From Minisyncoccota bacterium (lineage in GTDB: Bacteria; Patescibacteriota; Minisyncoccia; Phycocordibacterales; SBAW01): 64,000 nt of DNA. Position 1 is the first letter of the stretch. Every line of letters begins with the position of its first letter. The stretch is taken from the NCBI GenBank assembly GCA_035546575.1, contig DASZWN010000001.1:49082-113081 (forward strand), in the 5' to 3' direction. The position numbers and the translations under genes are program-made. Below are positions 14,429 to 61,712 of the stretch, piece after piece. The notes under the pieces were generated by a model. It made no database searches. It saw only the letters and a list, made by a program, of their open reading frames with translations, and was not told the DNA's origin.

Positions 14429-14501
14429 GCGCCCATAGCTCAGTCGGTAGAGCGGCTCCCTTTTAAGGAGAAGGTCGATGGTTCGAATCCATCTGGGCGC
14501 A
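14429..14501 (+). tRNA. tRNA-Lys (anticodon TTT)
   Basis: GCGCCCATAGCTCAGTCGGTAGAGCGGCTCCCTTTTAAGGAGAAGGTCGATGGTTCGAATCCATCTGGGCGCA has anticodon loop CTTTTAA. Confidence 0.85.
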
Positions 14502-17773: not shown

Positions 17774-18220
17774 TTAATCCCGAGGGTTCTCTATTGTTAC
17801 CCCTCGCTCCCCTTCTCCTGCATTGTCTGAAGAAAAGGTAATGAGCATGTCTGGCTTGGATAGCATACCTCGGACTTTTTCGGGCCATTCGATACACACC
17901 AAAGCCTTTGGGTCATTAAGAAAAGTTTCGGGCTTGAGTGTGGCAAACTCTTTTGGATCATCGAGTCGATATGCGTCTATGTGTACGAGTTTTTCGAAGC
18001 CTTTGTAGATTATTGGGTACGACTTCATAAGTACGTAGGTTGGGCTTTGCACGGTCTCCTCAACACCAATCGCTTTCGCGAGCGCCTGAGTAAATGTGGT
18101 TTTGCCTGCGCCTAGGTCTCCTGAGAGCGCAATAACCACTGCAGCGTCTTGCTTAGGAGATAGGCTGCCAAGTATTTGTTGCGCAAATGCGGGGAGTTCT
18201 GCGAGCGTAATTTTCTGCAT
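17774..18220 (-). CDS. tsaE: tRNA threonylcarbamoyladenosine biosynthesis protein TsaE
   Basis: 148 aa with the P-loop LSGDLGAGKTTFTQALAKA of the YjeE family. Confidence 0.8.
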   Translation of the reverse strand: MQKITLAELPAFAQQILGSLSPKQDAAVVIALSGDLGAGKTTFTQALAKAIGVEETVQSPTYVLMKSYPIIYKGFEKLVHIDAYRLDDPKEFATLKPETFLNDPKALVCIEWPEKVRGMLSKPDMLITFSSDNAGEGERGVTIENPRD

Positions 18221-26864: not shown

Positions 26865-27962
26865 TTATCGGTTCATTGGCATTGCTAGATAGAAGAAGGA
26901 GTCTTCTGCCGCGTCTTTTACCAAAAGAGGTTTGCCAGGGCCATTGGCGCTCATACGAACACTCTCCCCTGTTATCGCCTGGAGGCTGTCGGCCAAATAG
27001 CGGCCGTTAAAGTTCATCGCCGTTTCCTCGCCCGACACAGTCGCTCGCAGGGTTGAGGTTTGCTCGCCCACGTCTGGGTTGCGAGAGGAGAGCGTTACTA
27101 TTTTTTTGGATGGATCTACTGCAACCGACACCTGTGCAAATTTATCGGCGAATATAGAGAGCGACTTAAGCGCCTGGGCCATATCCTCGCGCAAGACCAC
27201 CGCCTCCGTTATAAACGATTTTGGAACGATCTGGCGGTAGTTTGGGAACGCACCATCGATAAGCCGGCTCGTGTAGTAGACCGAGCCTACATGCGTCGAT
27301 AGCTGATGCTCGTTGTAATACACCTCAACGTCTCCTGTTGCGGTTTCAAGAATGCGATTGAGTTCAACCGCATTACGCGCAGGCAAGAGCATTTGCGGCA
27401 CATTCCCCTGCGAGCGTAGCGGTACCGATTTTTCAGCCAAGCGGAACGAGTCGGTTGCGGCTGCTATAAGTTTGCCCGACTCGGCGTAGAGCAGGATGCT
27501 TTGGAGCTCCGGTTTTATTGCCGATGTGGAGGCACAGTACGCAACACTGCGTATGAGGCGGGCCATATCCGCCGACTTAACTGAAAACGAGGTTGATGCG
27601 GAGACTTGCGGCAATATAGGAAAATCTTCGTGCGGCACAGCTTTTATCGATGCCGCAGCGCGCTCGGTCTCGATCTTGAGCACTCCTCCTGCGAGTGTTG
27701 CAGAAACTGACTTACCGCGCGCGTTTCCTAAAAAGCCCGCGAGTACCGAGCCTGGTATAGCAACTATCCCCTCTTGTGATACTTTTGCCGCAACAGAAAT
27801 CTCTACGCCACACTCAAGATTGGTGGCACGCAGTGTAAGGCGGCCGTTTTCTGCCGCAATCAAAATACTCGCGAGTACCGGAAGGTTTGCTCGCTTCTCC
27901 ACAAAACGCACTGCCAGCGTTACTGCAGTGAAAAGTTGTTCTGTTGTGGATTCGAATTTCAT
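26865..27962 (-). CDS. dnaN: DNA polymerase III beta sliding clamp
   Basis: 365 aa. The N-terminus reads MKFESTTEQLFTAVTLAVRFVEKRANLPVLASILI..., a three-domain DnaN. It lies immediately downstream of dnaA. Confidence 0.9.
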   Translation of the reverse strand: MKFESTTEQLFTAVTLAVRFVEKRANLPVLASILIAAENGRLTLRATNLECGVEISVAAKVSQEGIVAIPGSVLAGFLGNARGKSVSATLAGGVLKIETERAAASIKAVPHEDFPILPQVSASTSFSVKSADMARLIRSVAYCASTSAIKPELQSILLYAESGKLIAAATDSFRLAEKSVPLRSQGNVPQMLLPARNAVELNRILETATGDVEVYYNEHQLSTHVGSVYYTSRLIDGAFPNYRQIVPKSFITEAVVLREDMAQALKSLSIFADKFAQVSVAVDPSKKIVTLSSRNPDVGEQTSTLRATVSGEETAMNFNGRYLADSLQAITGESVRMSANGPGKPLLVKDAAEDSFFYLAMPMNR

Positions 27963-30068: not shown

Positions 30069-30806
30069 ATGTTTGAAACACTGCTCGTTAAGCCTCTCTA
30101 CAACGGTTTTATATTTTTGATAGGCGTTATGCCGGGTGGCGACGTGGGGTTTGCCATCATCGTGCTCACGCTTATTATCCGCGTCCTGTTCTACCCCGCC
30201 TTTGCAGCGTCGATCAGGACCCAGATGGGCATGCAAGCAGCGCAGGCCGAATTAGACGAGATCAATAAGAAATACAAGGACGATTCGACCGCCAAGGCGC
30301 AGCATACCCTCGCACTCTATAAAGAGAAGAATATCCGCCCGTTTGCAGGTTTTGTCGCTCTGTTAGTCCAAATCCCGGTATTTCTTGCACTCTACTTCGC
30401 ATTTTTCCGAGAGGGGCTCCCGCATATCGCCGAAAACCTTCTTTATTCGTTCGTCCATGTGCCTGCTATGGTTAATCTCGACTTCCTGGGCTTTGTTAAC
30501 CTACTTGAGGCGCACAACATAGTGCTTGCTGTTATCGTGGCCGGGCTCCAGTACCTGGTCGCCTATTTCTCTATGGCTCGTACTAATACCGCGCTTGCTG
30601 CTATGCCTAAAGAGCGTCAGGCTGCGCAACGTATGCAGCAGCAGATGATGCTCTACTTTCTCCCCGCTATTATGGCTTTTGCCGCCTACAGCCTCCCGGC
30701 TGCGGTAGGCCTTTACTTTGCTGCAGGCAATGTTGTTTCTCTTGCGCAGGAGTGGGTAATCCGCAAACAGCTCGCCAAAAAAGCCAATACAGTAGGCACA
30801 ACATAG
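30069..30806 (+). CDS. yidC: Membrane protein insertase YidC (short monoderm form)
   Basis: 245 aa with 5 transmembrane helices. A conserved region reads GFVALLVQIPVFLALY. It sits after rnpA and before jag. Confidence 0.85.
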   Translation: MFETLLVKPLYNGFIFLIGVMPGGDVGFAIIVLTLIIRVLFYPAFAASIRTQMGMQAAQAELDEINKKYKDDSTAKAQHTLALYKEKNIRPFAGFVALLVQIPVFLALYFAFFREGLPHIAENLLYSFVHVPAMVNLDFLGFVNLLEAHNIVLAVIVAGLQYLVAYFSMARTNTALAAMPKERQAAQRMQQQMMLYFLPAIMAFAAYSLPAAVGLYFAAGNVVSLAQEWVIRKQLAKKANTVGTT

Positions 30807-31326: not shown

Positions 31327-32577
31327 CTACTGCGTCGAGCCGAGGCGGACTCCCCAGAGCGAATGATCGCCTTTTTTAATAAACAATAAGTAGTGCTCGT
31401 CCGGCGAGACTGCAATCTCGGTAATATCTGACGCAGCTCCCCCGTCCTCGCCACCTGGCAAAGCAATAATATCGCTTTTATTCGCACTCACATTAAACGA
31501 GAATAGTGCGTCCGGCAGTGTTGCAGCACCCTGATGCCACAAATCGAGGTATCCCGGCGGCACATACTGGAGTGGCGCTGCGCAGTACATGGTAGAAGTG
31601 GAAACACTGCTCCACACGCACTTCTCCGGGATCGGGTCAAACGAGAGCCCGGATTCTTTACCTGTTTTGACCTCGTGGACGTACGTTGACGCAGCACCGT
31701 TTACTCCCGATGATGTTTGGTATACCACGCGGCTGAAGCTCTTGTCTGCGGTTGCAGTTACGCCAGACGCAGAGAGCAGTGTGGAAACGGCGCCCGTAGC
31801 TGCCGAGATAGAAAATACCATACCCGGGTACCCTGCGGCGCTTTTTGTTTGTGCAAGAATCGTATTTTGCGCCGGCCACAAGAGTACTATCTGTGAGAGC
31901 GGCAGCGAAAAGAGTTTTTTGCCGTTTGTACCATCCGGTTTGGATATGTATCCGTCGCTGCCCACAGCGGTGGTAAGCAGATATACGATACTTTTACCGT
32001 CCGGAGAGGCTGCAACACTTATCACATTGTCCGGGAGAAATTGCACGCGCACCGGGCGGCTTGCAGCGGAAGTGGTAGTGGCTGCAGGCAGTCCCAGGTA
32101 AACCGTTTTTATCACAGTGGCATCAAGATATTGGAGTACCACCCCTGCACCGCCGTCGGTCCAGACACCCTGAACCGAGCCTGGAATAGTGGTGTTTGAT
32201 ACTGCGCGCGGTACCGCGCCCGCATTGTCGAGTGTCAGGTCAAACACATGGCCGTTTTCTTGGAGTACAAAGCGGGCAATAGTGGTTGTAGGGTGGAATG
32301 TTTGTATAAAGCTGGCGCTTGTTACTGGCGAGTCGGTTATTTTAAAGATTTTTTGTTGCGTTTGTTGAGTCGTGCTCACAATCTGGTTGTCGGTATCCGC
32401 AGAAGACGCACTACCAAGAGGTACGGTAACCGTGCGATTGTCCCCTACTCCAAACTCAGGGCCACCCGCTGAGGGAGTCTGTGTCGAGTCAGATCGGAAA
32501 AAGACAAACCAAGCAGTCCCAAAAAGGAGTACTAGTACTCCCACTCCCGCCGCAATTGGTTTCCAATCAAAGTTCAT
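31327..32577 (-). CDS. Membrane-anchored PD40/TolB-like beta-propeller protein (last gene of the T4SS-like operon)
   Basis: There is an N-terminal transmembrane helix. Repeated SPDG/SPDE blades occur (SPDGKSIVY, SPDEHYLLFIKKGDHSLWGV). It overlaps the upstream gene by 1 nt. Confidence 0.5.
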   Translation of the reverse strand: MNFDWKPIAAGVGVLVLLFGTAWFVFFRSDSTQTPSAGGPEFGVGDNRTVTVPLGSASSADTDNQIVSTTQQTQQKIFKITDSPVTSASFIQTFHPTTTIARFVLQENGHVFDLTLDNAGAVPRAVSNTTIPGSVQGVWTDGGAGVVLQYLDATVIKTVYLGLPAATTTSAASRPVRVQFLPDNVISVAASPDGKSIVYLLTTAVGSDGYISKPDGTNGKKLFSLPLSQIVLLWPAQNTILAQTKSAAGYPGMVFSISAATGAVSTLLSASGVTATADKSFSRVVYQTSSGVNGAASTYVHEVKTGKESGLSFDPIPEKCVWSSVSTSTMYCAAPLQYVPPGYLDLWHQGAATLPDALFSFNVSANKSDIIALPGGEDGGAASDITEIAVSPDEHYLLFIKKGDHSLWGVRLGSTQ

Positions 32578-32578
32578 A

Positions 32579-33532
32579 TTAATTTGATCCTATCCCGCCC
32601 GCCGAAGCTTTTACGCAACTGTACGATCCATCAGGGCCTATCTTATAGTTTCCGTACAGTGCTTCACAACTGTCATGATCCCCTTTGTCGTACGATCCTA
32701 CATTACGCACCGATTGCTGTTGTGCTGCGGGCGTGTTGTTCGAGCCCGGAACAACCAGATTAAATTTTAGAAGATCAGGATTGATGGTGTAGAGAATAAG
32801 CCATGAGCCAGCCAAAAGGAGTAACCCATAGATAGAGGAAGTCATCCATCGCTTAGCGTCTCCCTTTGTTTCCATCACCTCGGAGGTCATGTACATAATG
32901 CCTCCCACAACCAACCTTCCTACAGCGAGCAATGCGCCTACAGAAAGAAAGAGCTTAAACATAAGGTTTAAGTATGCGCCAAAGTCAGAAGCAATATTGG
33001 CAGGAGCATCGGGAAGCAACGGCTCAAGCGGAGTGTAGGAAATATTTCCGTTTGAGTTGCTGGAGCCTCTATTTGTATTTCCAGAACTGCTTTGAGTTGT
33101 TGCAGAGGTCGGAGATACTGATGTAGGCGAAGCGGTTGAAGAGGTAGTAACCGTATAGCCAGAGGGAGCTGCGGTACAGTGCATTCCTCCGCCAGAAGAA
33201 GAGCAGCCGCTCGGGAGCCTTCCAGATACAGGGATCGGGCAGTCGTATCCGCCTGAGGCTGCGGTGCATACGGCTGGTGTAAGATCGCATGTGTGTGCCG
33301 TGCCACTACCGGAACACGTATATCCGTTTGGTTCGCCGCTGCATTTGAGCTGCGTTGCTCCAAACAGGTCGCAATTGCCAGGTTTCTCCATTTCGCCGGT
33401 TATGTCGCAGACATACTGCACTTGTGACCCGGCCTGCTGCTCGCTACAGCTGATATCGGCTCCCTGTACAGATAAAGGAGCTAAAAAGCTAAGAACAAGC
33501 ACTATAGGGAAAAGGAGTCCGATTTTTTTCAT
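32579..33532 (-). CDS. Cys-rich secreted protein with a C-terminal two-helix hydrophobic hairpin (TrbC/VirB2-like pilin candidate)
   Basis: A signal peptide is followed by a domain with 14 Cys, then an S/T-rich linker. Two hydrophobic helices follow (FKLFLSVGALLAVGRLVVGGIMYM and IYGLLLLAGSWLILYTI) separated by a short charged loop, which is the VirB2/TrbC topology. Confidence 0.4.
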   Translation of the reverse strand: MKKIGLLFPIVLVLSFLAPLSVQGADISCSEQQAGSQVQYVCDITGEMEKPGNCDLFGATQLKCSGEPNGYTCSGSGTAHTCDLTPAVCTAASGGYDCPIPVSGRLPSGCSSSGGGMHCTAAPSGYTVTTSSTASPTSVSPTSATTQSSSGNTNRGSSNSNGNISYTPLEPLLPDAPANIASDFGAYLNLMFKLFLSVGALLAVGRLVVGGIMYMTSEVMETKGDAKRWMTSSIYGLLLLAGSWLILYTINPDLLKFNLVVPGSNNTPAAQQQSVRNVGSYDKGDHDSCEALYGNYKIGPDGSYSCVKASAGGIGSN

Positions 33533-34569
33533 AATCCAAATGCTGATAATGCGGTGTCTGTTTGCCCTCCAAACATAATTCTCAAAGCAGCTTGTGCGTC
33601 CTGTACAAACTTTTTAGGGTCGGTATTTTGTACCTCCACACTAACATCTGCTTGTCCGGCCCCGTTCCCTGCCTGCCTTAATGTGAGTATGCCACTGTCT
33701 GAATTCGGGCCAGACGTGCTGTCCCCGTTAAGCGTCCATGCAAAAGATGCGGTGCCGCCTCTAAGGCTCTCATTCGCAAAATAATAGGGCGCAGCCAGAA
33801 GCGTGATCTCTTTCCCGACAAGCGTTATAGTCGATGGAAATGCCTGGTCGTACAGAACGCCTCGCAACGGGTCTTTATTATAAAAAAGCACTCCTGGGTT
33901 AACTGCAGGGATAAATACCGATGCTTGCCCCACGAGCGAGCTCCCAAAGTAGATATCTACATCAACCTGCTCACCGCTGCGCAACTGGCTCCCTTGGAAT
34001 GTAAAGGTATTGTGGCCTTTGCCCGAGGCTACAGTAACCGGGTCGCCATTGAGTTTCCACTGGAACGAGAGGTTGTTTGCGGTGACTGTTCCCCCACTCA
34101 ACACTACCTGCGGGAATGCAACCACTTTTATGCTCGATCCTGCGGTATATAACGCTTTGCCGCGATAGAGTGGCGGCACCGAAGTATCTGCTTCCCAGAA
34201 CAAAGCTGTGCGAGTTGGAGTAAATACAAAATCGTTGGTGATCGTCCCCTGTATGGAGGAATTTATAACTACGTGGACTCGCGTAGTGACTCCGAGGTCG
34301 CCTGTAGTAAACGAGAATGTCTTTTGTCCTACCCCCGACAAAACAGTCTTTCCATTGACTTGCCATGTGATAGTAGCGTCACCCAGAAAAGTCCCCACAC
34401 CTTGTACCTCCATGGTCGTAAGCTGGTTTGGGCCAGGGACGTCGGGGTTAGTGATATAGCGCACAGGGTCCACACCTAGACTTTGTGCACGTACAAAGCT
34501 TCCGGTAAGGAAAATAAGTCCAAGCAGTATGATGATTTTAAAATTATGCCGCATATGCTGTACGTCCAC
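33529..34569 (-). CDS. Secreted protein with three tandem Ig-like repeats
   Basis: It has a signal peptide and three repeats of about 100 aa (ATITWQVNGKTV, NLSFQWKLNGDPV, SFAWTLNGDS). It overlaps both neighbours by 4 and 26 nt. Confidence 0.5.
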   Translation of the reverse strand: MDVQHMRHNFKIIILLGLIFLTGSFVRAQSLGVDPVRYITNPDVPGPNQLTTMEVQGVGTFLGDATITWQVNGKTVLSGVGQKTFSFTTGDLGVTTRVHVVINSSIQGTITNDFVFTPTRTALFWEADTSVPPLYRGKALYTAGSSIKVVAFPQVVLSGGTVTANNLSFQWKLNGDPVTVASGKGHNTFTFQGSQLRSGEQVDVDIYFGSSLVGQASVFIPAVNPGVLFYNKDPLRGVLYDQAFPSTITLVGKEITLLAAPYYFANESLRGGTASFAWTLNGDSTSGPNSDSGILTLRQAGNGAGQADVSVEVQNTDPKKFVQDAQAALRIMFGGQTDTALSAFGL

Positions 34570-35290
34570 GCCCGCCCTCTATATCCTTAAGAGTATCATT
34601 TGCAGCGCGAGGAATCTTGAGATTATCATTTGCAACTGTGGGCTGTTTCGGCGGCTTAATGTCGCTGTCTACTCCCCTTCCAAGCTGCAGGGCCGGCGTT
34701 CTCTCCGGCGTTTCTACACGCACAGGGCCTTCTTGTTCTTGTTGAGATATTTGTTGCGACTGGTCCTGCGAAGGTCCCCTGTTTACTCCCCCCGCAATCG
34801 TAGCGACTGTTGCTCCCGGAGAAGTTGCTGAAGTTGTCAGATTGCCAGCTATTGAGAGAACACCAGTTCCCTCCTCTGCATTCTTTTTTAAGACACAAAG
34901 AATAGTAAGCGTTGTCCAGAAGGGGATTATATTAAGGCCCGGAATGAGCTCCCCGCCTCCCCAGATCAGGTATTTTGGGTACAAGATTCCGTTAAACCCC
35001 ATAAGGGCAATTAAAAAGACCCCGAGCGTGGCACTAATGCAAAAGCCCAATGCTATGCCCATACCCATGCTGATAGGCAGTGTTGCAACCGCAAGTATCC
35101 CATTAACGAAGGGTAACCCTCCGATGGCACCGAGTACTTTGCAGCCAATGTCACCTGCAATTTGAGTTCCCACAAAACAGCCGCCGATAGGACCTGGTAA
35201 AGCCCCCACTGCAAATAATGCAACAGACATAAAAGCCTGAAAGCCGTCTATCAAAAGTCCAAGCAATATAAATAATACCCCTTTACTCAT
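34544..35290 (-). CDS. Gly-rich polytopic membrane protein
   Basis: 248 aa with 4 transmembrane helices and a C-terminal S/T/Q-rich tail. It overlaps VirB4 by 4 nt. Confidence 0.45.
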   Translation of the reverse strand: MSKGVLFILLGLLIDGFQAFMSVALFAVGALPGPIGGCFVGTQIAGDIGCKVLGAIGGLPFVNGILAVATLPISMGMGIALGFCISATLGVFLIALMGFNGILYPKYLIWGGGELIPGLNIIPFWTTLTILCVLKKNAEEGTGVLSIAGNLTTSATSPGATVATIAGGVNRGPSQDQSQQISQQEQEGPVRVETPERTPALQLGRGVDSDIKPPKQPTVANDNLKIPRAANDTLKDIEGGRGRTAYAA

Positions 35291-37125
35291 GATGTAGTTG
35301 GAGCAGAGCTCGACGCAGTGTTGGCAGCATCGGACCGTTGTTTGCGCAGTGCGAGCACCTGACTTGGATCAGAGGTAATGATCTGATCCTCGGTATACGA
35401 AGCAATTATTTTAATAGCAACGTGTTTGAGGCCGGCAAAAAAGATTCCCTCCCCCACATCAGACTCAAGAAGCAGGAACTTTTCCTCATCGGAAAGGTTG
35501 AATGTCTTTTGGAGGTTATCAATCGTAGTCGGCGATTGCTTGAGCAAAAGCTGAATCGACGAGTTAGTGATCATCGGGAGGCCATAAGGCGACTTAAGGA
35601 AGTCGTCCACATCTTGCGTAATAGTCGCGAGCCCCAAATAGTATTTGCGGCCGCGCTTTGCCATACCGTAGAGGAACGAGGCGGTGTCCTCCGACTTCAT
35701 CATCCACCACGCTTCGTCGATCACGAGCAGGCGCTTCTTTAGATTTTTGCGCACCGTGTTCCAGATGTAGTGCGTAATCAGGTACATCGCGACCGGCTTA
35801 AGGTCGTCCTCCATGTCGCGCACCGAAAATACGACGAACTTTTTGTTGATGTCGACGTTTGTTGCCTGGTTGATAAATCCGGCCCAAGTTCCTTTGGTAT
35901 ATTTGGAGAGGCGCTGCACTAATGACTCGCTTCCCTCCATACCTGCAAGCACCAGTTCAAAGTCGCTTAGGAGCGGCGGCTCAATCTGGCTGAAGTCGGA
36001 GTCAACCGTAATGTCTTTAAGCGCATACGTTTCGGTAATAGCGCGGTCCATAATCGCGTCCTCCTCCGGCGTGAGGCCGCCCATCATAAGGCGGAACATG
36101 CCCACAAGGGCTACGATATTGCTGCGCAGCACATCGGCCGGCGACTCGTCCTCGCGTGGAGGGGCCAGATCAAACGGGTTGATGTGGTGCTCGGAGTTGA
36201 GAGAAATATTGAAGTAGCGCCCCCCTACCGCCTGGGAGAGGAACTCGTACTCGCGCTCCGGGTCGATCACGATAACCTCGGTATCAAACATGAGCGTGCG
36301 CAAAATTTCGAGTTTGGTTGCATACGATTTGCCGGAGCCCGATTTTGCGAATATCACCGAGTTGTAGTTCTCCAGAGAAAAGCGGTCAAACAGCACGAGC
36401 GATGCGTTGTGGCGGTTAACGCCATATAAAATCCCTTTGTCGGAGGTGAGATCAAACGAGACGAATGGGAAAATTGATGAAAGCGGCGAGGAATTTAATT
36501 TTGAGTTTACGTTAAGCGCGTCTTCTCCCAGCGGCAGCACCGATTTAAACCCCTGCTCTTGCTGAAAGAGTGCCGGTTTAACGTACACCAGGCGCGACTC
36601 AAGCATCGACTTGATCTCGCTCTCTGCCTTGTCGAGTTCCTCCACTGTTGCGCCGTAGATCGTAATGTATACGCCAACGTCAAAGATGCGCTCCTGTGCC
36701 TGCTGGAGCTGGTCGCGCAGGTCTTCCAGGTCGCGGTACGCGGTGTCGAGTATCGGGTCGCGCACCAGGCCTTTTTGCTCGCGAGTCATAATCTGCGACT
36801 GCACCTCAGCCACCTTTTTTTGGAACTTTTTAAGAATCTCGGCCGAGTCTATCGGGTGGATAAAGATAGACACATCAAGCACTCGGTCTAGGTTGATAAC
36901 CGGGGCAAACCAAGAGTCGGTAAGCGTGCGCGGATATGACATCACAAAGAAAGTACGTGCTATTTTGTCGCCCAAGTTAAGCTCGCGCGGAGTTATCTTA
37001 AGTGCCGAGGGGGCAATAACGTCTTGGAGCTCGAGTATGCCCTGTTTGTAGATCTGTTCAGGCAAAATCGGCGCCATCGGTGCCGGAGCAGACTGCTTTT
37101 GTTTTAGAAAGTCGAGTAAAGCCAT
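35287..37125 (-). CDS. virB4: VirB4/TrbE/CagE-family T4SS ATPase, C-terminal two-thirds
   Basis: It has a CagE_TrbE_VirB region (NLGDKIARTFFVMSYPRTL) and Walker A IFAKSGSGKSYATK. A DEAWWMM motif and the C-terminal ATPase domain follow. The likely ATG at 37125 sits 1 nt after the stop of the upstream N-domain ORF. Confidence 0.8.
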   Translation of the reverse strand: MALLDFLKQKQSAPAPMAPILPEQIYKQGILELQDVIAPSALKITPRELNLGDKIARTFFVMSYPRTLTDSWFAPVINLDRVLDVSIFIHPIDSAEILKKFQKKVAEVQSQIMTREQKGLVRDPILDTAYRDLEDLRDQLQQAQERIFDVGVYITIYGATVEELDKAESEIKSMLESRLVYVKPALFQQEQGFKSVLPLGEDALNVNSKLNSSPLSSIFPFVSFDLTSDKGILYGVNRHNASLVLFDRFSLENYNSVIFAKSGSGKSYATKLEILRTLMFDTEVIVIDPEREYEFLSQAVGGRYFNISLNSEHHINPFDLAPPREDESPADVLRSNIVALVGMFRLMMGGLTPEEDAIMDRAITETYALKDITVDSDFSQIEPPLLSDFELVLAGMEGSESLVQRLSKYTKGTWAGFINQATNVDINKKFVVFSVRDMEDDLKPVAMYLITHYIWNTVRKNLKKRLLVIDEAWWMMKSEDTASFLYGMAKRGRKYYLGLATITQDVDDFLKSPYGLPMITNSSIQLLLKQSPTTIDNLQKTFNLSDEEKFLLLESDVGEGIFFAGLKHVAIKIIASYTEDQIITSDPSQVLALRKQRSDAANTASSSAPTTS

Positions 37126-37126
37126 A

Positions 37127-37795
37127 CTATTTTTGTGCTGCCATATTGGTAACCTGGAGCGGCTTTTCAAGTTCGCCGGGGTTAAACAGCTTGTAGAAGA
37201 GCTCGATCACCTCCTCGGTACCAAGTTTGACCACGCGCACAGAGGTGCGTACCAACCCTTGTTCCACAACCGAGATTCGCTGCTCGAGCTGCGTGCGATA
37301 TTGCTCGAACTGCTCGTCGGTCAAAGAGTTGGATGCATTTTTGCCTGTCGGCAGCAAATTGCCGAGCGCCGAGATGCCTCCGCCCCGAGCAATAAGCGCC
37401 GGGTCGTACGGCACAACGATAAAAAAGTTCTTGGCCATGATATTGGCACGCTCAGTAAAGTCTTTGATAAAAACGATGTACTCCCGGATCTGGATCTTCA
37501 TCAGGTCGTCGAGCTCAAGCGCATAGCGCTCCTCAAGGAGGGCAATATATGGCCGCACATCCAGGTCTCGGCTCTCAATAAAAAACTGCACCGAGAATTC
37601 GAGCGAATTGAGAAAGTTTTGGAACTGCCCGATAATCGCCTGCTGCTCGTCACTGCTCTTGAGTGCCAAGTTAATAGACGAGGCCATCAGGAGCGCGCGC
37701 AGCGAGCCGTCTTTAAGAATAATAACGCCGTCGCGCACCTCTTTAATGGGTACGAATTCCTGTGTTGCTTGAGCTTTTACTTTTTGGTCAGGCAT
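37127..37795 (-). CDS. VirB4-family N-terminal domain encoded as a separate ORF
   Basis: It reads VPIKEVRDGVIILKDGSLRALLMASSINLALKSSDEQQAIIGQFQNFLNSLEFSVQF, which is the typical PrgJ/TcpF/VirB4 N-terminus. An A5 run at the junction means a 1-nt indel would fuse it to the downstream ATPase ORF. Confidence 0.7.
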   Translation of the reverse strand: MPDQKVKAQATQEFVPIKEVRDGVIILKDGSLRALLMASSINLALKSSDEQQAIIGQFQNFLNSLEFSVQFFIESRDLDVRPYIALLEERYALELDDLMKIQIREYIVFIKDFTERANIMAKNFFIVVPYDPALIARGGGISALGNLLPTGKNASNSLTDEQFEQYRTQLEQRISVVEQGLVRTSVRVVKLGTEEVIELFYKLFNPGELEKPLQVTNMAAQK

Positions 37796-37800
37796 AGGAT

Positions 37801-38247
37801 TTAAATCTCAAAGCCGGTACGCGCAGTGGTGTCCGCCACTCCCATCTTAGCCCGATCTTTTATATTGAGTGACCAAGCCAAATCCTTGAGTTTGCTTTCG
37901 GAAAGTTTTGGCACTCCGGATACTGTCGCAACAGCTGTAGGTGCAACAGCTGCCTCGGGAGTTTTTGCCTCGTGTTGTTTCCAGAGATACAGCTTATGAC
38001 CCAGGATATAGCTGAACGCATGTTCGATCACCACAATAAGTGGCCGGCCGTTAACCTGGTAGAACGCAAGACCTGCCGAGAGTGCAATCACCGGTATGGC
38101 TAGAATAACGGTGAGATAAAGAGGCAAGAGCGAAAAGAAGATAAGACACAGCCCTCCCCCGCCCGCCAAGTAGATAAACTGTTTTAAGGTCAGCGGACCA
38201 AAAATCTTGTCTTCTATCTCGATAAACTGAGGAACCTGATAGCGCAT
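37801..38247 (-). CDS. PrgI-family (VirB3-like) small membrane protein
   Basis: It has the PrgI N-terminal signature MRYQVPQFIEIEDKIFGPLTLKQFIYL followed by two transmembrane helices. It lies immediately upstream of VirB4, as in Gram-positive T4SSs. Confidence 0.7.
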   Translation of the reverse strand: MRYQVPQFIEIEDKIFGPLTLKQFIYLAGGGGLCLIFFSLLPLYLTVILAIPVIALSAGLAFYQVNGRPLIVVIEHAFSYILGHKLYLWKQHEAKTPEAAVAPTAVATVSGVPKLSESKLKDLAWSLNIKDRAKMGVADTTARTGFEI

Positions 38248-38271
38248 CGCTATCTAGTATATCGCATTATT

Positions 38272-38895
38272 TCACTCCGGAGGTTCGCGATACGGGTCAG
38301 TTTTATAGGCAGCGGGTTTAGGTGCCTCTGGTTTTGGCGGTTGCACAGGCGGCGGAGCCACTTGTACCGTCTTTTCAGTCAGCATAACCTCGGCCGGGTG
38401 CATCTCCGGCGGTTTGACTGGCATAGTCGGTTTAGGAACAGCAGGTGTTGGAGTACTGGAAGCTGATGCTGCAGGCGTTGAGGATATAGACGGAGGCGAT
38501 ACGGTAGGTTTTGGAGCCGCAGTGGCTGCCGAGGGCATAACAACAGATTTTTCTGGAGTAGATACAGTCGTAGAAGCTGCAGGCCCAGTCTTCATAGACT
38601 CGCGGATAGAGAGAAGTATCTGCGAGTTCACCTCCCCAGCTATCTTGTCGGCCTCCTCTTTTGATATACCAACCTCATTTACAAGGTTAGAGGGAAAATT
38701 ATTCGCGTCAGTAAACCCGAGCATGAGCATGAGCGTCTCGCTGCCCAGCTTTTCTGTCTGGTCAATATGTAGATGGTGGGCTTGAGCAATAGCTGCCACC
38801 TTCTGCTCCCAGTTGTTGGAGAGGATTGCTTCCTGAACATCTTCGGGTAACTCTGCAAGCTTCGCTTCTATTTCTTTGGTAAAATCTTCAGCCAT
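38272..38895 (-). CDS. Pro/Ala/Thr-rich protein of unknown function
   Basis: 207 aa with an alpha-helical N-domain and then a low-complexity P/T/A/S-rich segment (…PKPTVSPPSISSTPAASASSTPTPAVPKPTMPVKPP…). Confidence 0.45.
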   Translation of the reverse strand: MAEDFTKEIEAKLAELPEDVQEAILSNNWEQKVAAIAQAHHLHIDQTEKLGSETLMLMLGFTDANNFPSNLVNEVGISKEEADKIAGEVNSQILLSIRESMKTGPAASTTVSTPEKSVVMPSAATAAPKPTVSPPSISSTPAASASSTPTPAVPKPTMPVKPPEMHPAEVMLTEKTVQVAPPPVQPPKPEAPKPAAYKTDPYREPPE

Positions 38896-38924
38896 AATAT
38901 TTTAGTTAGTATATCATTTGGCAA

Positions 38925-41075
38925 CTAGTGGGCTGGTTTTGAATGTCCAAAAGCATCATGTCCATCTGATTTTTTAGAGTCATCGTTATTTGGAGAATGA
39001 GATTCTTTATCGTGTCCTTCTTCTTTGTCATGATCTTCTTCACCCCCACCCTCTTCTTCGTGATGATCTTTTTCAAATTGTTTTACCGCTTTCAAAAGGT
39101 TATCGTGTGCGCCTCCTCCCTTCGCCATCTTAAGTACTTTTTCTGCACCTAGTGTTTGAGCACGTGAAAGACGACTATTAAGCCGCGCTGCCAACTTCTC
39201 GAGATTCTCCTTCTGTCGTAGAGAAACTCTGCTGCTACCGACTTCAGTCAGAGACTTAATTTCCTTCTCCTTGTCTTCAGCAAGTTTCTTGCTTACTTTC
39301 GCACTTTCTCTATAGCTATCTGCCGTTGCACCAGTTGATTTTGCTGCAAGAGCTGCAAATTTTATAGCATCACGTCGGGCTTCTTTTAATTCGTCTTTCA
39401 GTCCACCAACTTTTTTCTCATATTCGCCTCGGCCATTTTCCTCGTCATACTCTCTTTCAAACCTTCTTTGTTCACGAGCAACATCTACCGCATCGCCTTT
39501 GTAAGCCTCAGCCTGCTTTTGGTAACCCTTAGCAGCCTCATCAATGGCTTTTGCAATACCACCTTTGCCGCCCGCTTTGCCAAATTCTGTTAACCCGACT
39601 TTTCCTAAAGGATTTCGGAGATCGAGACTGCCTTTCCCAATTCTGTTTGTGTAATCAAATATTCTACCGATAGTACGCGGATTAGATGTAGCGACGCCCT
39701 GGAATCTTTCTGAACGGGAAGCTTCATATGCAACTCTGCCAACGGTATTTCTGTAGAATCGTGCCGGAATAGCAAATCCGACTTTGCCCCCTGCCCAGTT
39801 TCCTGCTTGGGCGCCTATAGCACCCATACCATCGGCGGCTTTCATACCCAGGAAGAGCATTACGATAATGAACCCCAATCGTATAGATATATCAGCAATC
39901 AGTGCAGCTATACCAAGTAGACCATTAGTTGCTCCAGCCACTCCTGTTGCAGCTCCTGTGGGCTGTTGTATGTATGTGACAAATGCCTGGCTTATATTAA
40001 GATCGCCAGCGAACTGCACAATAAGCCAGAAAATAAAGAGAAACACAGCGGGATAGAATGCATGGCTAATAAGTGTTTCTTGCCATTGGTCGTAGTATTT
40101 TTCAAAGCGATGCGAAGCCTTGGCTATAAAAGCCAGGGGTGATGCAACGATAATAAGCCACAGCACTGCAATACGCACAATAAATCGTATGCCTACCGAC
40201 ACAAAGGCGGCGGCAAGGATGAAATATATAACGCCCATAAATATGTAAATGATCAGGAGCGTTATGAATTCGGTAACACCATTGGTATTGTCTTGGAACT
40301 TGCCAAACGAATCCGTACCAAGTATTTTCTGCACGCCTACCGCATTCATAATGCTCGCGGTAAGATCTTTGGTGCCATTTACCGTCGCAGGTTGCCCATT
40401 AACAATCACAGTGGGTACGGCATTATAAAACTGTGCCGCAACAATATTGCCGGCATCTATTACGACTCGAGTAAAGAAAAAGCTGAAGTTGATGATAAGC
40501 GCAATAAATATTACGAAAGCGAGCGTCTGCATCGTGTGGCCTGTGTCCGCTGAGAGTATGATTGTGATCGCAATATAGATAAGTATGAGAATGAACCCCA
40601 TATTAGCTATGTCGCGAGCCGTTTCCCACCCATGGGTGACAAACGTTAGGCCATACGCGGTGCTGTTTATCGATAACTGGGTTGCTACGTTAAAAATGTA
40701 AGCTGCAACATATGCTACAAAACTTCCGAACCCAACCGTGAAGGCATATACAGGTAAAAGAAGACAAGAGCTTATCGAGTTACAAAGAGGGGCAGTATTA
40801 GTAGTTACAGAATTTGCAGATAAACCATGGGCTTCAGCTGCTTGTTTTTCACAGGCTGCCTGATTACCTCCATTGTTGACACATGCTTGTGCTTCAGAAT
40901 TTGCTTGATTACGAGCATTGATAGCATCAATTTGTGCCTGGGTTATGACAGATGCTCCTTGGGCTTTTGGTGTTGCTCCAATCGATGAAAACACAAGTAG
41001 CAGCGTCGCAAGGCACAATAAAGCTTTTGCAGTGCTGCTTAGAAATTTATTTTTTATGCTACTGCCCCAGCGCAT
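38925..41075 (-). CDS. VirB6/TrbL-like polytopic membrane protein with charged coiled-coil C-terminal tail
   Basis: 716 aa with a signal or N-terminal transmembrane segment, then at least 7 transmembrane helices. The last ~250 aa are highly charged (KE/KD-rich) and His/Glu-rich. It sits upstream of PrgI and VirB4, matching the Gram-positive T4SS order. Confidence 0.55.
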   Translation of the reverse strand: MRWGSSIKNKFLSSTAKALLCLATLLLVFSSIGATPKAQGASVITQAQIDAINARNQANSEAQACVNNGGNQAACEKQAAEAHGLSANSVTTNTAPLCNSISSCLLLPVYAFTVGFGSFVAYVAAYIFNVATQLSINSTAYGLTFVTHGWETARDIANMGFILILIYIAITIILSADTGHTMQTLAFVIFIALIINFSFFFTRVVIDAGNIVAAQFYNAVPTVIVNGQPATVNGTKDLTASIMNAVGVQKILGTDSFGKFQDNTNGVTEFITLLIIYIFMGVIYFILAAAFVSVGIRFIVRIAVLWLIIVASPLAFIAKASHRFEKYYDQWQETLISHAFYPAVFLFIFWLIVQFAGDLNISQAFVTYIQQPTGAATGVAGATNGLLGIAALIADISIRLGFIIVMLFLGMKAADGMGAIGAQAGNWAGGKVGFAIPARFYRNTVGRVAYEASRSERFQGVATSNPRTIGRIFDYTNRIGKGSLDLRNPLGKVGLTEFGKAGGKGGIAKAIDEAAKGYQKQAEAYKGDAVDVAREQRRFEREYDEENGRGEYEKKVGGLKDELKEARRDAIKFAALAAKSTGATADSYRESAKVSKKLAEDKEKEIKSLTEVGSSRVSLRQKENLEKLAARLNSRLSRAQTLGAEKVLKMAKGGGAHDNLLKAVKQFEKDHHEEEGGGEEDHDKEEGHDKESHSPNNDDSKKSDGHDAFGHSKPAH

Positions 41076-42867
41076 AGCATTGATTGAGTTTGGTACTGGT
41101 GTCGGAGTTGAGCGCGTTCATCTGTGCCTGGAGCGTGGTGCGGTCTTGCTGGGCGGACGTGATATCGGTCGAGTCGTATACACTTCCAGAGTTTTTAAGC
41201 TGAGCATATGAGGCTGCTGCAGCACGGACCTCAAGCAATGTGGTTGCCGAGAGAACTTGCGTCTGGACAGCTTGGATATCAGCAATATCTTGATTAGCTG
41301 CAGTTATTTTGTTGTTGTACAGCGTAACTTGGCCTTCAAGCTCGGCTATTTTGTCGGCAGTACTCTGGGCCAAGTCAGTTTTATTTGCGGCAGTCCAGCA
41401 ATTGCCAAGCGTAGTAAGGTTTGCCTGAGCATTTTGTATGTCGCTAATATCGCCCTGCTCTACTGCGCCGTACTGTTGGGCGTATTGTACCGAGGTCTGC
41501 ATCTCATCAAGCAGGTCATTTGCCTCGCCTTCTGCTTGCAAATCCTCTGTGCTCAATGATGCGCCGTAGCCATTTTGGCCGTTGCCAAGGTTGGAGAGAC
41601 CCTTATTAAACATCTTAGTGATAAGAGCATTAGTTAGTGCTCCGATGATCTCATCGATGCTTTGGGCAAGATTAAGCTCATTAAGTGTCGACTGCACATT
41701 GGCGTTGAATGCGCCTAGTATTGCGCTGCCTGGCGTTACACAGTTTCCGTCTTTATCTTTTGCGCATAGGAATCCTTGCCCATTGTTGAGCTCTTGCGTA
41801 CTTGCCAGTACTGCACTCCCCCGTGCGCCTTCTATAGCTACCTGCCCGTACATATATGCGCCGAAAGGATTGTTCGTTGGCATGGTGGTAAATGATATGA
41901 GCCCCGGCCACCCGCCTTGCGAGAAGTCACCGCCTGCAAACTTTTCTATGTTGCCGACAACGCCCGAGAGCGTACACGATGGGGCGTTATTGCGCCGCGC
42001 ATAACTCTGTGCAATGGCGATGCGAACTTTAAGCTGGAACGGGCTGCAGAGGAACGCCAGGTTGCTGCCCTCGATCACGCTGCCTGCTGCTTGGTCGGCA
42101 ACATCGTTAAAGAATTTATTGTAGTCTTGCACAAAGGCAGGTTTGCCCTCAAATCCCGAGTTGATCCAGTTGACGGTGTCGTTGGTGATTTTATCTATCG
42201 CAATACGAGCAAGTGCCATCGTGACGCACTTCAAAATGCTATCGGTTTGTTGGTTTGCATGGGTCGAGCTGTCGTTTACATTCACTTGTCCAGATAGTGC
42301 ACCAAAAATAGAGCCGAGTGCTGTGCCCGCTAGCTGGCTTGCGGCAAATTTTGCCAAACAGGCGGCTGCAACACCCGCCAAGCCTGCGCCAAAATTATTG
42401 CCACCCCCGCTCGATACGGTTGCAGGGTCTACGCCAATATACGAAGTACCATACACACTCGTGTTAGTAACCTGGTTGATCGGCGTCGGGTTAAAGAGGC
42501 TCCCTGCTCCACGCAGCGTAAGCGACCCTGAGCCGCTGCTTGAAGTGACGCTTGAACCGTCGAGCCATGTAGCCCCGCTCGGGTTTGCAGAACCCAGATC
42601 GACGTATGAGATAGTGCCGTCGGAGTACCCCCCGCCCGAGCCTTGTCCGCTTACTCCGGTACCCGCGTTCGAGCCAACGGGCACTTGCCCGTTTACATCG
42701 GAGCCGATCGTGCCGGTCGAAGTGTTATTGCGGTCGCCGCCCGTGCCGAGCGTGCCGGTGTCAGTTACCTTTGCTCCCCCACCCGAGAATAGCCAGAACC
42801 ATAGCCCAACGATGAGCGCTAAAATAACGAGCGCTCCGATGATTATATAAAGTATCCTTCTGGTCAT
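41059..42867 (-). CDS. Membrane-anchored large extracellular protein (Gly/Ser-rich N-region, helical C-region)
   Basis: 602 aa with an N-terminal transmembrane helix and a G/S/T-rich linker. The C-terminal half is alpha-helical and rich in Q/N/A. It could be a VirB5-like or tip protein, but there is no firm homology. Confidence 0.45.
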   Translation of the reverse strand: MTRRILYIIIGALVILALIVGLWFWLFSGGGAKVTDTGTLGTGGDRNNTSTGTIGSDVNGQVPVGSNAGTGVSGQGSGGGYSDGTISYVDLGSANPSGATWLDGSSVTSSSGSGSLTLRGAGSLFNPTPINQVTNTSVYGTSYIGVDPATVSSGGGNNFGAGLAGVAAACLAKFAASQLAGTALGSIFGALSGQVNVNDSSTHANQQTDSILKCVTMALARIAIDKITNDTVNWINSGFEGKPAFVQDYNKFFNDVADQAAGSVIEGSNLAFLCSPFQLKVRIAIAQSYARRNNAPSCTLSGVVGNIEKFAGGDFSQGGWPGLISFTTMPTNNPFGAYMYGQVAIEGARGSAVLASTQELNNGQGFLCAKDKDGNCVTPGSAILGAFNANVQSTLNELNLAQSIDEIIGALTNALITKMFNKGLSNLGNGQNGYGASLSTEDLQAEGEANDLLDEMQTSVQYAQQYGAVEQGDISDIQNAQANLTTLGNCWTAANKTDLAQSTADKIAELEGQVTLYNNKITAANQDIADIQAVQTQVLSATTLLEVRAAAASYAQLKNSGSVYDSTDITSAQQDRTTLQAQMNALNSDTSTKLNQCYALGQ

Positions 42868-42869
42868 AG

Positions 42870-43763
42870 TTATTGCAAAGAAAGAAGCGTAGCCCAGGCG
42901 CTTCCGGGCTCGTCCTTAGTAAAAAGTATACCGTTTTGTTTAAGTATCTGCGCAATGTTTATAAACACACGCGTCGTCTCGTCTACAAGTGACTGATAGG
43001 TCTGGAGGCCGGCTATGCTGCGCAATGGGTCGCTTACCGCAACCTCCATATCCGAGTATGCTCCCGCGGCGTATGAAAGGTTGTTTAGGATCTGTAGATG
43101 GAGCGGCGCAAGCGTAGGCGGTACGGGCACTTTAGCTAAGTCGCGTACGAGCGCTCGGTACTCTTTTTGTATATTTGCGAGCTTTGCCACTTGCGCTGGG
43201 TCGTTAGAATCGGTTAGATACCCCAACGCAAAAAGCGTGTCGTTGTAATTTGCACCTGGGTGCGCAGCCATCGCAGTCATAACAGCGTTGCCGTATGCCT
43301 TAAGGGCAATAGGCGTCTGGGTTGAGAGGGTTAGGTCGCTTGAAGCGTACGCTGGGGGGTCCTTCTCGCCTTGTATCTGCGCCGTTGCTTGTGCAATAAG
43401 TTGGTTTTGGGTCGGAATATCACTGCCAAGACCCTGTGATTTGGCATCAAATAGGTTGACCAGCAGGCTCTGAGCCACCGTGGTGGTCAAATTAGTACTT
43501 TTTGTGGCGTCTAAGAGTGTGTCTACTGTAGAGCTTGCAACCGCAGCAGTGATAGCGCTCTTGCCTTGTATGGCAAGGAGTGTCTGCTCCCAATTTGGAT
43601 CAACACGTGATAGATCTCTCGGCGCCGTAGTTGCAGTGAGAGTCGAGGGCAAACCTCGCGGTGCTCCCGTTAAATATTGCGCTGCGAGCACAAGTGCGCC
43701 TGACGCGGCAATTGAGCCGACAATAAGCACAAACTGCGCGCTAGGGAGAAAGCGGCTAGGCAT
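42870..43763 (-). CDS. Bitopic membrane protein (first gene of the T4SS-like operon; VirB8-like topology)
   Basis: 297 aa with a single N-terminal transmembrane helix and then a soluble domain. This topology is compatible with VirB8/PrgL-type proteins. Assignment is by topology only. Confidence 0.4.
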   Translation of the reverse strand: MPSRFLPSAQFVLIVGSIAASGALVLAAQYLTGAPRGLPSTLTATTAPRDLSRVDPNWEQTLLAIQGKSAITAAVASSTVDTLLDATKSTNLTTTVAQSLLVNLFDAKSQGLGSDIPTQNQLIAQATAQIQGEKDPPAYASSDLTLSTQTPIALKAYGNAVMTAMAAHPGANYNDTLFALGYLTDSNDPAQVAKLANIQKEYRALVRDLAKVPVPPTLAPLHLQILNNLSYAAGAYSDMEVAVSDPLRSIAGLQTYQSLVDETTRVFINIAQILKQNGILFTKDEPGSAWATLLSLQ

Positions 43764-43805: not shown

Positions 43806-44313
43806 TATGCGCACACTTCTAACATCTGCACTGCTCGCTACACTCCTCCTACCATCTATTGGCTTCGCGCAGTCATCTACAAGCACTGCCACAACTACTT
43901 CGCAATCGAGTAACTCGAGTAGCGGTGCTGGTACTGCCCTGTTGATTGGGGCGGGTGTCACTGCAGGTGTAGTAGCAGCTAAGGCGCTCTCGTCAGGCAT
44001 CTCTGGTCCTCCGGGGATTTCTTTCGGTGGTCGAGTATTGACTGCCCTTCCATGCATTAGTCCGCTTGGACCCTCGCTCGCCATTACTATCAAACCTGCA
44101 GGTGTCTTTCCGATCAATTACATTTGGACTCCAGCAACCCTGACTAAGCCAACGCAGCTTTCTGTGCCTACCCCGGGTGGGCAAGTACTCGGTATTGCCG
44201 ATATCCCCTACGCTTGTTGGAACCCTATTAAAGGCGGCCTCTTCGGACTCTTTACGTTCTTGAGCTACTCGTACGGTCTGCGCATGCAGATTGTCGGTAC
44301 TAGCCCTTATTGA
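43806..44313 (+). CDS. Small secreted S/T-rich protein with a central hydrophobic segment
   Basis: It has a signal peptide MRTLLTSALLATLLLPSIGFA. The mature part has an S/T-rich stretch and then LLIGAGVTAGVVAAKAL. It diverges from the T4SS-like operon. Confidence 0.4.
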
Positions 44314-45086
44314 TGCCGGCTTAGCGCAAGCCAAGTTTCAAGCGGCATATCTTCTGCACGCGCGTTTTCGGTTACTCCAATATTCTGCAGAATACCAGAA
44401 TATTCTTTCCCCAACAGAGGCTCTAAGTTGCGTCCAAGCAATTTGCGTTTGTGGGCAAAGCCAGCATGTACGATTTCAAAAAATCTTTTTTCTTGATTTG
44501 CATTCGCAAAATTCTTGCGTGAGATATTCGTGATACTCAGTATCGCAGAGTCTACTTTGGGCGGCGGAGAAAATGCGCCAGCCGGAACGGTATGCATATA
44601 TATTGGAGTGCCGTACGCTTTAACCGAGAGTGAGAGAATGCTTTCTTTTTTTTCGCGCGCAATACGCTCAGCGACTTCTTTTTGTACCAAAAGTGTCATT
44701 GCACTTGGTTGTACACCTGATGACAAAAATTTTTCCATAATCGCACCCGTGATGTAGTACGGAATATTTGCAACAAGTTTATATGCACGGTCTTTGAGCT
44801 CAAGCGTCTCTGCGCCAACCTCCAATGCGTCACCCTCGATCAGCGAAAGTTTTTTCTCGCGAATATCCTCGGCAAATGTTTTTTGTAGTATCGGAATTAG
44901 CCGCGAATCTTTTTCGATTGCAACAACTTCTGCGCCGCGCGCGATAAGTGCGGCGGTGAGCGCGCCGTCTCCAGGCCCGATTTCGAGTACGCGCTCCCCC
45001 GGCTTAATGTCGGCCGCATCGACGATCATGTTCAGATAATGCGTCGAGTGTAAAAAATGCTGCCCGAGAGATTTTTTCTGAAACAT
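44307..45086 (-). CDS. rsmA: 16S rRNA (adenine1518/1519-N6)-dimethyltransferase
   Basis: It reads MFQKKSLGQHFL..., has SAM motif I VLEIGPGDGALT, and an NIPY motif. Confidence 0.9.
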   Translation of the reverse strand: MFQKKSLGQHFLHSTHYLNMIVDAADIKPGERVLEIGPGDGALTAALIARGAEVVAIEKDSRLIPILQKTFAEDIREKKLSLIEGDALEVGAETLELKDRAYKLVANIPYYITGAIMEKFLSSGVQPSAMTLLVQKEVAERIAREKKESILSLSVKAYGTPIYMHTVPAGAFSPPPKVDSAILSITNISRKNFANANQEKRFFEIVHAGFAHKRKLLGRNLEPLLGKEYSGILQNIGVTENARAEDMPLETWLALSRHQ

Positions 45087-60473: not shown

Positions 60474-60510
60474 GGCACAATTCTAGCACGCCCACCTTGG
60501 GCCTATCTTT

Positions 60511-60582
60511 GCGTCCGTGGTGAAATGGATATCATCGCTGCCTTCGAAGCAGTTGTTGTGGGTTCGAATCCTGCCGGACGCA
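60511..60582 (+). tRNA. tRNA-Arg (anticodon TCG)
   Basis: GCGTCCGTGGTGAAATGGATATCATCGCTGCCTTCGAAGCAGTTGTTGTGGGTTCGAATCCTGCCGGACGCA has anticodon stem GCTGC/GCAGT with loop CTTCGAA. The D-loop AATGGATA is shared with the other Arg tRNAs. The T-stem has two G·U pairs. Confidence 0.65.
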
Positions 60583-60796
60583 CAAAAGACACAACAAACT
60601 GCCCTGCGGCAGGTTTTGTGCTTTTGGGCGAGACGGAGCGTTGTTTTGCAATGGCAAAACCGCGAGTCGGAGTCGTCGAGCGATTTTGCTGACGAGCAAA
60701 ATCGACATGTGACCACTTGCGTAGGCAGAACCTGTGACCGAATCCCCTGCCGGACGCACATGTTTGTGATATAGTGTTTTCGTAGAATTGAAATAC

Positions 60797-60867
60797 GCGG
60801 ATATTGTTTAATGGTAGGACGCGTCCTTGCCAAGGACGAGGTGGGAGTTCGATTCTCCCTATCCGCA
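60797..60867 (+). tRNA. tRNA-Gly (anticodon GCC)
   Basis: GCGGATATTGTTTAATGGTAGGACGCGTCCTTGCCAAGGACGAGGTGGGAGTTCGATTCTCCCTATCCGCA has anticodon loop TTGCCAA. Confidence 0.85.
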
Positions 60868-60923
60868 CTGGTTTTGTTTGTTCTAGCTCCCTCTTTGCAA
60901 TAGAAAATAAAAGACATCCATTT

Positions 60924-61478: not shown

Positions 61479-61554
61479 TGCTATTCTCAGTCAGTCACAG
61501 TCTAACCCTGGCGTCTTATACCGATAGTCGCTTGAGTGGGGTCAAACACTGAGT

Positions 61555-61625: not shown

Positions 61626-61675
61626 CTCAGTGTTTGACCGGATGTGCGGGGCACATCCGTGGCTCCGAAGGAGAA

Positions 61676-61706: not shown

Positions 61707-61712
61707 CGTAAC

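Follow-up and report, generated by a model that had tools for sequence, protein, structure and literature searches.

Homologues of TrsD are the most abundant component of type IV secretion systems (T4SSs) in Patescibacteria: the available part of a survey of these systems (Quinonero-Coronel et al., Microb Genom 2025, PMC12102498) counts 2,272 of them, of which 1,664 adjoin virB4. In the same part of the survey, TrsD is portrayed as remotely homologous to the N-terminal portion of VirB4 and has no function assigned to it; the survey also reports that the TrsD homologue of Southlakia epibionticum is essential, and places the T4SS clusters of Patescibacteria beside dnaA, dnaN and ksgA. The essential T4SS genes of Southlakia epibionticum are SEML1_0006-0019 (Wang et al., Cell 2023, PMC10633639). 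That the Patescibacteria T4SS is essential for epibiotic growth was shown in its one genetically tractable member. A full-text literature search under 'split VirB4' yielded no paper, and TrsD is not mentioned in the main text of Guglielmini 2014. Here, we analyzed a stretch of 64,000 nucleotides (nt) from a Minisyncoccota bacterium (contig DASZWN010000001.1, positions 49,082 to 113,081; the whole stretch is referred to as the window), in which a VirB4-type protein is encoded by two adjacent open reading frames (ORFs): ORF-N, encoding 222 amino acids (aa), and ORF-C, encoding 612 aa. With a probability of about 0.88, the two genes form a conserved two-polypeptide VirB4, in which the TrsD-like product of ORF-N is the first sub-domain and the product of ORF-C is the rest of the N-terminal domain together with the ATPase domain.

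On the minus strand, the junction of the two genes reads ...gca gca caa aaa TAG t ATG gct tta ctc..., such that the translation of ORF-N ends in ...CAAAAATAG, a single T follows at 37126, and ORF-C opens in a different reading frame (coordinates of all features are listed in Table 1). An earlier note on this DNA had described two ORFs in different frames with stop and start arranged as TAGTATG, which the sequence and the ORFs confirm. It had also pointed out that dropping one A from the A5 run (37130..37134) would fuse both into a protein of about 835 aa; in silico, this removal indeed gave an uninterrupted ORF of 835 aa reading ...MAAQNSMALLDF... across the junction. The ORF listing offers a longer alternative start for ORF-C, a TTG at 37170; the orthologues begin at the MALLDF ATG in 77 out of 77 cases, and the ATG at 37125 is therefore regarded as the real start. 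Three explanations had been proposed in the earlier note for this arrangement: a genuine two-subunit VirB4 made by translational re-initiation, a sequencing error in the homopolymer, and a slippage-prone tract giving phase-variable expression.

To decide between them, 80 loci from different GTDB species were fetched and both parts were mapped; 78 of these loci extend far enough to be read across the junction and 77 have a mappable downstream start. The comparison of orthologous loci, which the earlier note had proposed as a check, placed the split at the homologous position in all 78 species loci: the ORF-N homologue stops there and a separate MALLDFLK-type gene follows. The downstream start was an ATG in 77 of 77 loci, and the spacers measured between 0 and 565 nt; a length of 1 nt was the most frequent (19/77), and 66 of the 77 were no longer than 12 nt. 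All three frame relations occurred (41, 18 and 18 loci), including 18 loci in which the two ORFs lie in the same frame and are parted by a stop codon, and a homopolymer of 5 or more was present at the junction in only 10 of 77 loci. In the nearest relative (L001, 95% identical), the junction reads CAG CAC TAA cactat ATG, i.e. both ORFs are in one frame and the A run is missing, and the genes are still split. In a search of 5.8 billion proteins, the best 120 matches to ORF-N were 81-100% identical and all of them stand-alone proteins of 199-227 aa; a protein identical to ORF-N (P0001) is annotated as a stand-alone hypothetical protein in a Candidatus Paceibacterota metagenome-assembled genome. 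The split is thus a genuine and native architecture, as none of the close or moderately distant relatives examined has the two genes in one, and of the three proposals it is the two-polypeptide VirB4 that these data support. Across 67 species, the identity of the N part to its counterpart in the window and that of the C part correlate tightly (r = 0.95; means of 78.8% and 88.7%, respectively), which fits vertical co-inheritance under strong constraint.

A single VirB4 gene broken by a spurious extra A would explain why one A fewer gives the 835-aa ORF, and fused VirB4 genes do exist in Colwellbacteria (see below). However, the split is found at the same place in 78 of 78 independent species assemblies with differing junction sequences and frames, 18 loci carry a stop between two same-frame ORFs, the nearest relative is split without an A5, and the fused forms are only 35-44% identical in the N part. 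Moreover, the lone apparent split in the fused clade is a scaffold-gap artefact, so real errors look different. A sequencing or assembly error consequently has next to no probability. The A5 could alternatively act as a switch between two polypeptides and a fused VirB4, either by phase variation or by programmed ribosomal frameshifting, given that it lies directly before the stop and that both frames would be joined by a +1 shift at this point. This is very improbable, since the tract is short and not conserved among the junctions, the frame relation is not constant, and no Shine-Dalgarno-like stimulator is present. The Lys tRNA would also re-pair poorly on moving from AAA to AAU. Programmed frameshifting in particular was rejected for want of a conserved slippery site, a conserved frame relation and a stimulatory element. 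For a frameshifted pseudogene, close relatives with an intact single ORF would be expected; none of the 78 species loci is fused, and fused forms are confined to a distant clade. Error, pseudogene, programmed frameshift and homopolymer switch were all rejected because each of them predicts a pattern other than that of the 78 loci.

At the protein level, the orthologue alignment shows that the last ~8 residues of ORF-N and residues 9-16 of ORF-C are variable, while the octapeptide MALLDFLK at the start of ORF-C (window 37102-37125) is conserved at ~70-90% across 73 species and conservation is high from residue ~17 onward. The fused Colwellbacteria proteins possess neither the MALLDFLK segment nor the variable linker of the split forms. 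Given the variable flanks and the fused forms devoid of the octapeptide, the split lies in a linker and MALLDFLK is a hallmark of the split form alone, where it may serve in docking or in membrane binding.

The 612-aa protein has a P-loop ATPase domain of the VirB4/HerA-FtsK lineage with a Walker A (KSGSGKSY) and a Walker B motif (LLVIDEAW). Its residues 251-554 match the Pfam families P-loop_TraG (92.6 bits, cut-off 25.8), AAA_10 and DUF87, and residues 114-199 weakly match the last quarter of the Pfam model of the TraC N-terminal domain. It matches the C-terminal domain of Thermoanaerobacter VirB4 (PDB 4AG5) with an E-value of 9e-42 and scores 391.4 bits (cut-off 325) against NF045971, the NCBIfam model of CD1110-family VirB4, of which only profile positions 181-733 out of 752 are covered. 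Likewise, only positions 285-893 of the VirB4_plasma profile (VirB4 of the Mycoplasma integrative and conjugative element, ICE) are matched, and the alignment with TrwK of R388 is confined to TrwK residues 286-735, with TrwK residue 286 corresponding to ORF-C residue 111. Because the profile and TrwK matches begin late, some 175-180 residues that open a canonical VirB4 are missing from ORF-C, and a complete N-terminal domain is not contained in it (positions 1-180 of the CD1110 profile, roughly TrwK residues 1-175, are absent). ORF-C is a VirB4-type ATPase consisting of the second half of the N-terminal domain and the C-terminal P-loop ATPase domain, and the profile matches of the upstream ORF-N indicate that the absent segment is supplied by this 222-aa ORF.

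ORF-N aligns with the CD1110 VirB4 profile at positions 2-76 and with VirB4_plasma at positions 99-233. It also matches the TrsD/TraD family model NF041427 (E 1e-8) with 35.2 bits at a cut-off of 200, and is for this reason a remote TrsD relative rather than a strict member of NF041427. In size and position it corresponds to TrsD, being a stand-alone protein encoded between a PrgI-family gene and virB4, and PF26593 (TraC-like) is precomputed in the protein database for the identical protein P0001 and all 120 homologues. A phmmer search of ORF-N against PDB sequences gave nothing meaningful, the best hit being staphylocoagulase at an E-value of 0.6. ORF-N is homologous to the N-terminal portion of VirB4: within the N-terminal domain, it corresponds to the first sub-domain of ~200 residues, which here has a gene of its own. 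The label 'VirB4 N-terminal domain' given to it in the earlier note is right in substance according to the profiles and the structure models, but the existing name of the protein is TrsD-like (PF26593), and the implied boundary has to be shifted: the split falls inside the N-terminal domain and not between this domain and the ATPase domain.

Fused and tailed forms were found in other lineages. An exhaustive search of 50%-identity representatives returned 2,271 relatives of ORF-N, and among the best 150 of these all but one were 121-443 aa long; in the remaining one, P0194 with 797 aa, ORF-N and ORF-C are joined into a single protein. A search with P0194 gave best 120 matches of 59-100% identity, nearly all of them fused and 775-807 aa long, whose named members belong to Candidatus Colwellbacteria (P0271-P0389). 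The gene of P0194 (L083:544-2937) has PrgI, yidC, rnpA, dnaA and dnaN as neighbours. The AlphaFold2 model of P0194 (mean predicted local distance difference test, pLDDT, 72.8) aligned end-to-end with the TrwK structure 8rtd_O (E 5.6e-28, 812 columns, TM-score 0.52). One member of the fused clade (P0289, 600 aa) was considered as a recent fission and rejected, as a scaffold gap (run of N) lies inside the fused gene (L082:1545-1647). The split and the fused state are both stable and occur in different lineages. Nine longer unfused relatives of ORF-N were read and consist of the N domain followed by a disordered Pro/Gln/Thr-rich tail. In P0159, P0161, P0165, P0166, P0173, P0188, P0216 and P0228, a TrsD-like domain does not end at about 220 aa but continues into a low-complexity Pro/Gln/Thr/Ala-rich tail of 80-230 residues.

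Since the profile matches are non-overlapping and consecutive and the fused homologues match TrwK end to end, ORF-N and ORF-C are complementary pieces of one VirB4, and the profile alignments show the two together to be collinear with the single-chain protein. On the grounds of this complementarity and of the fused homologues, we infer that the two polypeptides would assemble non-covalently into a VirB4-like unit, with the ORF-N protein completing the N-terminal domain. This unit would dock on the PrgI/VirB3-like membrane protein and power the secretion machine; cryo-electron microscopy of R388 reportedly has the VirB4 N-terminal domain docked on VirB3 at the membrane.

Several points weigh against a two-polypeptide VirB4. 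The available portions of the literature on these systems report no physical interaction of the two polypeptides, and confidence in the structure models is moderate (pLDDT 66.8 and 72.8). The similarity between ORF-N and TrsD is remote, with 35 bits against a cut-off of 200, a non-significant BLASTP comparison and an hhalign probability of 37%. A Pfam-A hmmscan of ORF-N gave no family even at E-values up to 10, so that the precomputed PF26593 was not reproduced; PF26593 is probably absent from the Pfam-A copy scanned, or present there in another version. Finally, with respect to coupled translation of the two genes, the spacers exceed 12 nt and reach up to 565 nt in 11 of 77 species.

As an alternative, the TrsD-like protein could be an independent accessory or adaptor protein that only shares its fold with the VirB4 N-terminus, serving for example in regulation or substrate recruitment, and not a structural piece of the ATPase. 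Long variable disordered tails in other Patescibacteria lineages (proteins of 296-443 aa) suggest an extra role, the TrsD homologues of Gracilibacteria do not adjoin virB4 and have no function assigned to them in the available part of PMC12102498, and the mean identities given above show faster evolution in the N part than in the C part. Yet the two proteins match consecutive, non-overlapping parts of full-length VirB4 profiles, ORF-C has no equivalent of the opening ~175 residues of TrwK, and a whole clade fuses both in the expected order into a form that superposes end to end on TrwK. We therefore consider an independent accessory protein to be quite unlikely.

The secondary structure of the P0194 model was also inspected: residues 14-207 and 239-381 display a similar order of elements, which comprises three short strands, a helix, a strand, two long helices, a strand, a helix and a strand. 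In the model, this order is a hint that the VirB4 N-terminal domain underwent an internal duplication in ancient times; an hhalign comparison of the ORF-N family with the first sub-domain of the ORF-C family gave an E-value of 0.33 and hence no sequence support.

How ORF-C might be translated was addressed with the start sites of the window. The core of a Shine-Dalgarno motif precedes only 4 of 51 ORFs (~15% expected by chance), while a -10-like hexamer TA[TCG]A[CAT]T (TATACT-like) is located 9-20 nt before 9 of 51 starts (1.5% expected); the starts examined include those at 3914, 17774-18220, 37801-38247, 38272-38895, 42870-43763 and 62582-63736. Shine-Dalgarno use is not seen in this genome, and the placement of the -10-like hexamers suggests leaderless or very short-leader mRNAs with leaderless first genes. 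Tight junctions recur in the operon of ORF-C, where TAA-t-ATG joins two other genes (32577-32581) and ATGA overlaps are present at 35287-35290 and 33529-33532. As the genome shows no sign of Shine-Dalgarno use, a ribosome ending at the TAG would re-initiate at the ATG one base further on, making termination-reinitiation plausible for the ATPase gene, and this would couple the synthesis of the ATPase to that of its N-terminal partner. The longer spacers in 11 of 77 species indicate that tight termination-reinitiation is common and not obligatory. The longest of them, the 565-nt spacer between the TrsD-like gene and virB4 in a Candidatus Taylorbacteria locus (L071, 1628-2192), holds an inserted small ORF (83 aa, an in-frame TGA and 36 aa more) flanked by inverted 'ccaaattccaa'-type repeats. 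Judged by eye, the encoded protein may be similar to the four-helix-bundle proteins that rRNA intervening sequences encode.

The two genes are part of a T4SS gene string on the minus strand (~31327-43763) that lies directly between a group formed by dnaN, dnaA and yidC and another formed by ksgA and a UvrD-type helicase gene; as dnaN and dnaA adjoin, the cluster lies beside the replication-origin region. ORF-C is encoded together with other T4SS components, namely the PrgI-family gene, which lies directly upstream of ORF-N with a 5-nt spacer, and the T4SS_pilin gene. Six ORFs of the string (716, 602, 297, 416, 248 and 207 aa) gave no Pfam match at E-values up to 1, and NCBIfam likewise had no match for those of 716, 602, 248 and 207 aa. 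These ORFs lie within 38925-43763 (including 38925-41075, 41059-42867 and 42870-43763), 31327-32577 and 34544-35290. At the same Pfam threshold, no VirB6 or other T4SS family was detected in the neighbouring large ORFs; some of the six ORFs without a Pfam match may be the VirB6- and VirB8-like components that would be expected. No relaxase was seen in the scanned ORFs of the cluster. Elsewhere in the window, ten tRNA genes are located at 1103-1288, 2715-2799, 5986-6057, 10531-10602, 14429-14501, 60511-60867, 61555-61625 and 63774-63844. The ORFs 2235-3128, 60483-60917 and 61502-62056 overlap tRNA genes and are probably not genes.

Table 1. Features of the T4SS gene string and of its flanks (positions in the window)
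Feature	Coordinates	Strand	Remarks
dnaN	26865-27962	minus	Pfam DNA_pol3_beta
dnaA	28159-29529	minus	Pfam DnaA
yidC	30069-30806		
Protein with C-terminal T4SS pilin domain, operon of ORF-C	32579..33532	minus	Pfam T4SS_pilin, 28.2 bits (cut-off 26.6)
VirB4-type T4SS ATPase (ORF-C), 612 aa	37125..35287	minus	ATG at 37125 (MALLDFLK...), stop at 35287
Junction AAAAA-TAG-T-ATG	37123..37134	minus	TrsD-like stop, 1-nt spacer, virB4 start
TrsD-like protein (ORF-N), 222 aa	37795..37127	minus	stop TAG at 37129..37127
PrgI-family (VirB3-like) membrane protein	37801..38247	minus	Pfam PrgI, 42.4 bits (cut-off 27)
716-aa ORF, candidate T4SS component	38925..41075	minus	no Pfam or NCBIfam match
ksgA	44307-45086		

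Taken together, the split, the octapeptide and the tails allow a more far-reaching reading, in which the split is more than a neutral fission and has freed the first VirB4 sub-domain as an exchangeable adaptor, with fusion and fission representing different modes of T4SS regulation or assembly. Docking would then proceed via the conserved MALLDFLK N-terminus of the ATPase, with long disordered tails on the adaptor in other lineages. We regard this proposal as unlikely; if true, the fusion in Colwellbacteria versus the fission elsewhere would mark different modes of a T4SS on which epibionts depend. As a minor variant of it, rare slippage at the A5 may yield some fused protein in this organism. 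Irrespective of the adaptor proposal, the TrsD-like/virB4 junction should be neither reported as a frameshift nor 'repaired' in genome annotation and scanning. Viewing TrsD and the short VirB4 as VirB4 halves also provides a concrete hypothesis for the function of the TrsD family, including its members on staphylococcal resistance plasmids. The additions made here are modest: the two halves are explicitly described as complementary, and the fused forms of Colwellbacteria are reported, neither of which was found in the available part of PMC12102498.

Among known systems, the programmed frameshift genes prfB and dnaX and homopolymer phase-variable genes share with the locus only a homopolymer by the stop and a downstream ORF in another frame; unlike these, it exhibits no conserved slippery site, frame relation or stimulatory element. 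The single-chain VirB4 proteins (TrwK of R388, PDB 7O41/8RTD; the CD1110 family; the Mycoplasma ICE protein; the ~790-aa Colwellbacteria forms) agree with the window pair in fold and in the order of segments, and their profiles and the TrwK structure are covered by the N part plus the C part, the difference being one polypeptide instead of two. On the conjugative plasmids pSK41/pGO1 of Staphylococcus aureus (MPF_FATA class, pGO1 subclass), the genes are ordered trsC, trsD and trsE; in pSK41 they encode 135 aa, 227 aa (annotated as TrsD/TraD family) and 672 aa (the VirB4 ATPase), respectively. The order of small protein (TrsC), TrsD and ATPase is common to both systems, the sizes of the two VirB4 parts are 227 + 672 aa in pSK41 versus 222 + 612 aa in the window, and the PrgI-family gene of the window occupies the position of trsC in pSK41 and of PrgI in the Colwellbacteria locus L083. 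From residue 35 onward, ORF-C aligns with TrsE from residue 36 onward (E 1e-33), and owing to this collinearity the split point is the same in both systems. TrsD of pSK41 gave a non-significant BLASTP E-value of 1.9 with ORF-N and a weak but collinear hhalign match with the ORF-N family (174 columns, E 3.6e-4, probability 37%). The pSK41 system differs in being plasmid-borne and conjugative with a relaxase, whereas that of the window is chromosomal and beside the origin, and in having a spacer of 14 nt before the ATPase gene versus 1 nt. The closest counterparts are the chromosomal T4SSs of Patescibacteria, which belong to the same phylum-level lineage and share with the window the TrsD-like gene directly upstream of virB4, the nearby PrgI/VirB3-like and VirB2-like pilin genes, and the position of the cluster beside dnaA, dnaN, yidC and ksgA. 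From these the window differs in nothing of kind: the architecture is already known as the TrsD-like plus VirB4 pair of Patescibacteria and of pGO1-type T4SSs, and the locus analyzed here is one more, ordinary instance of it.

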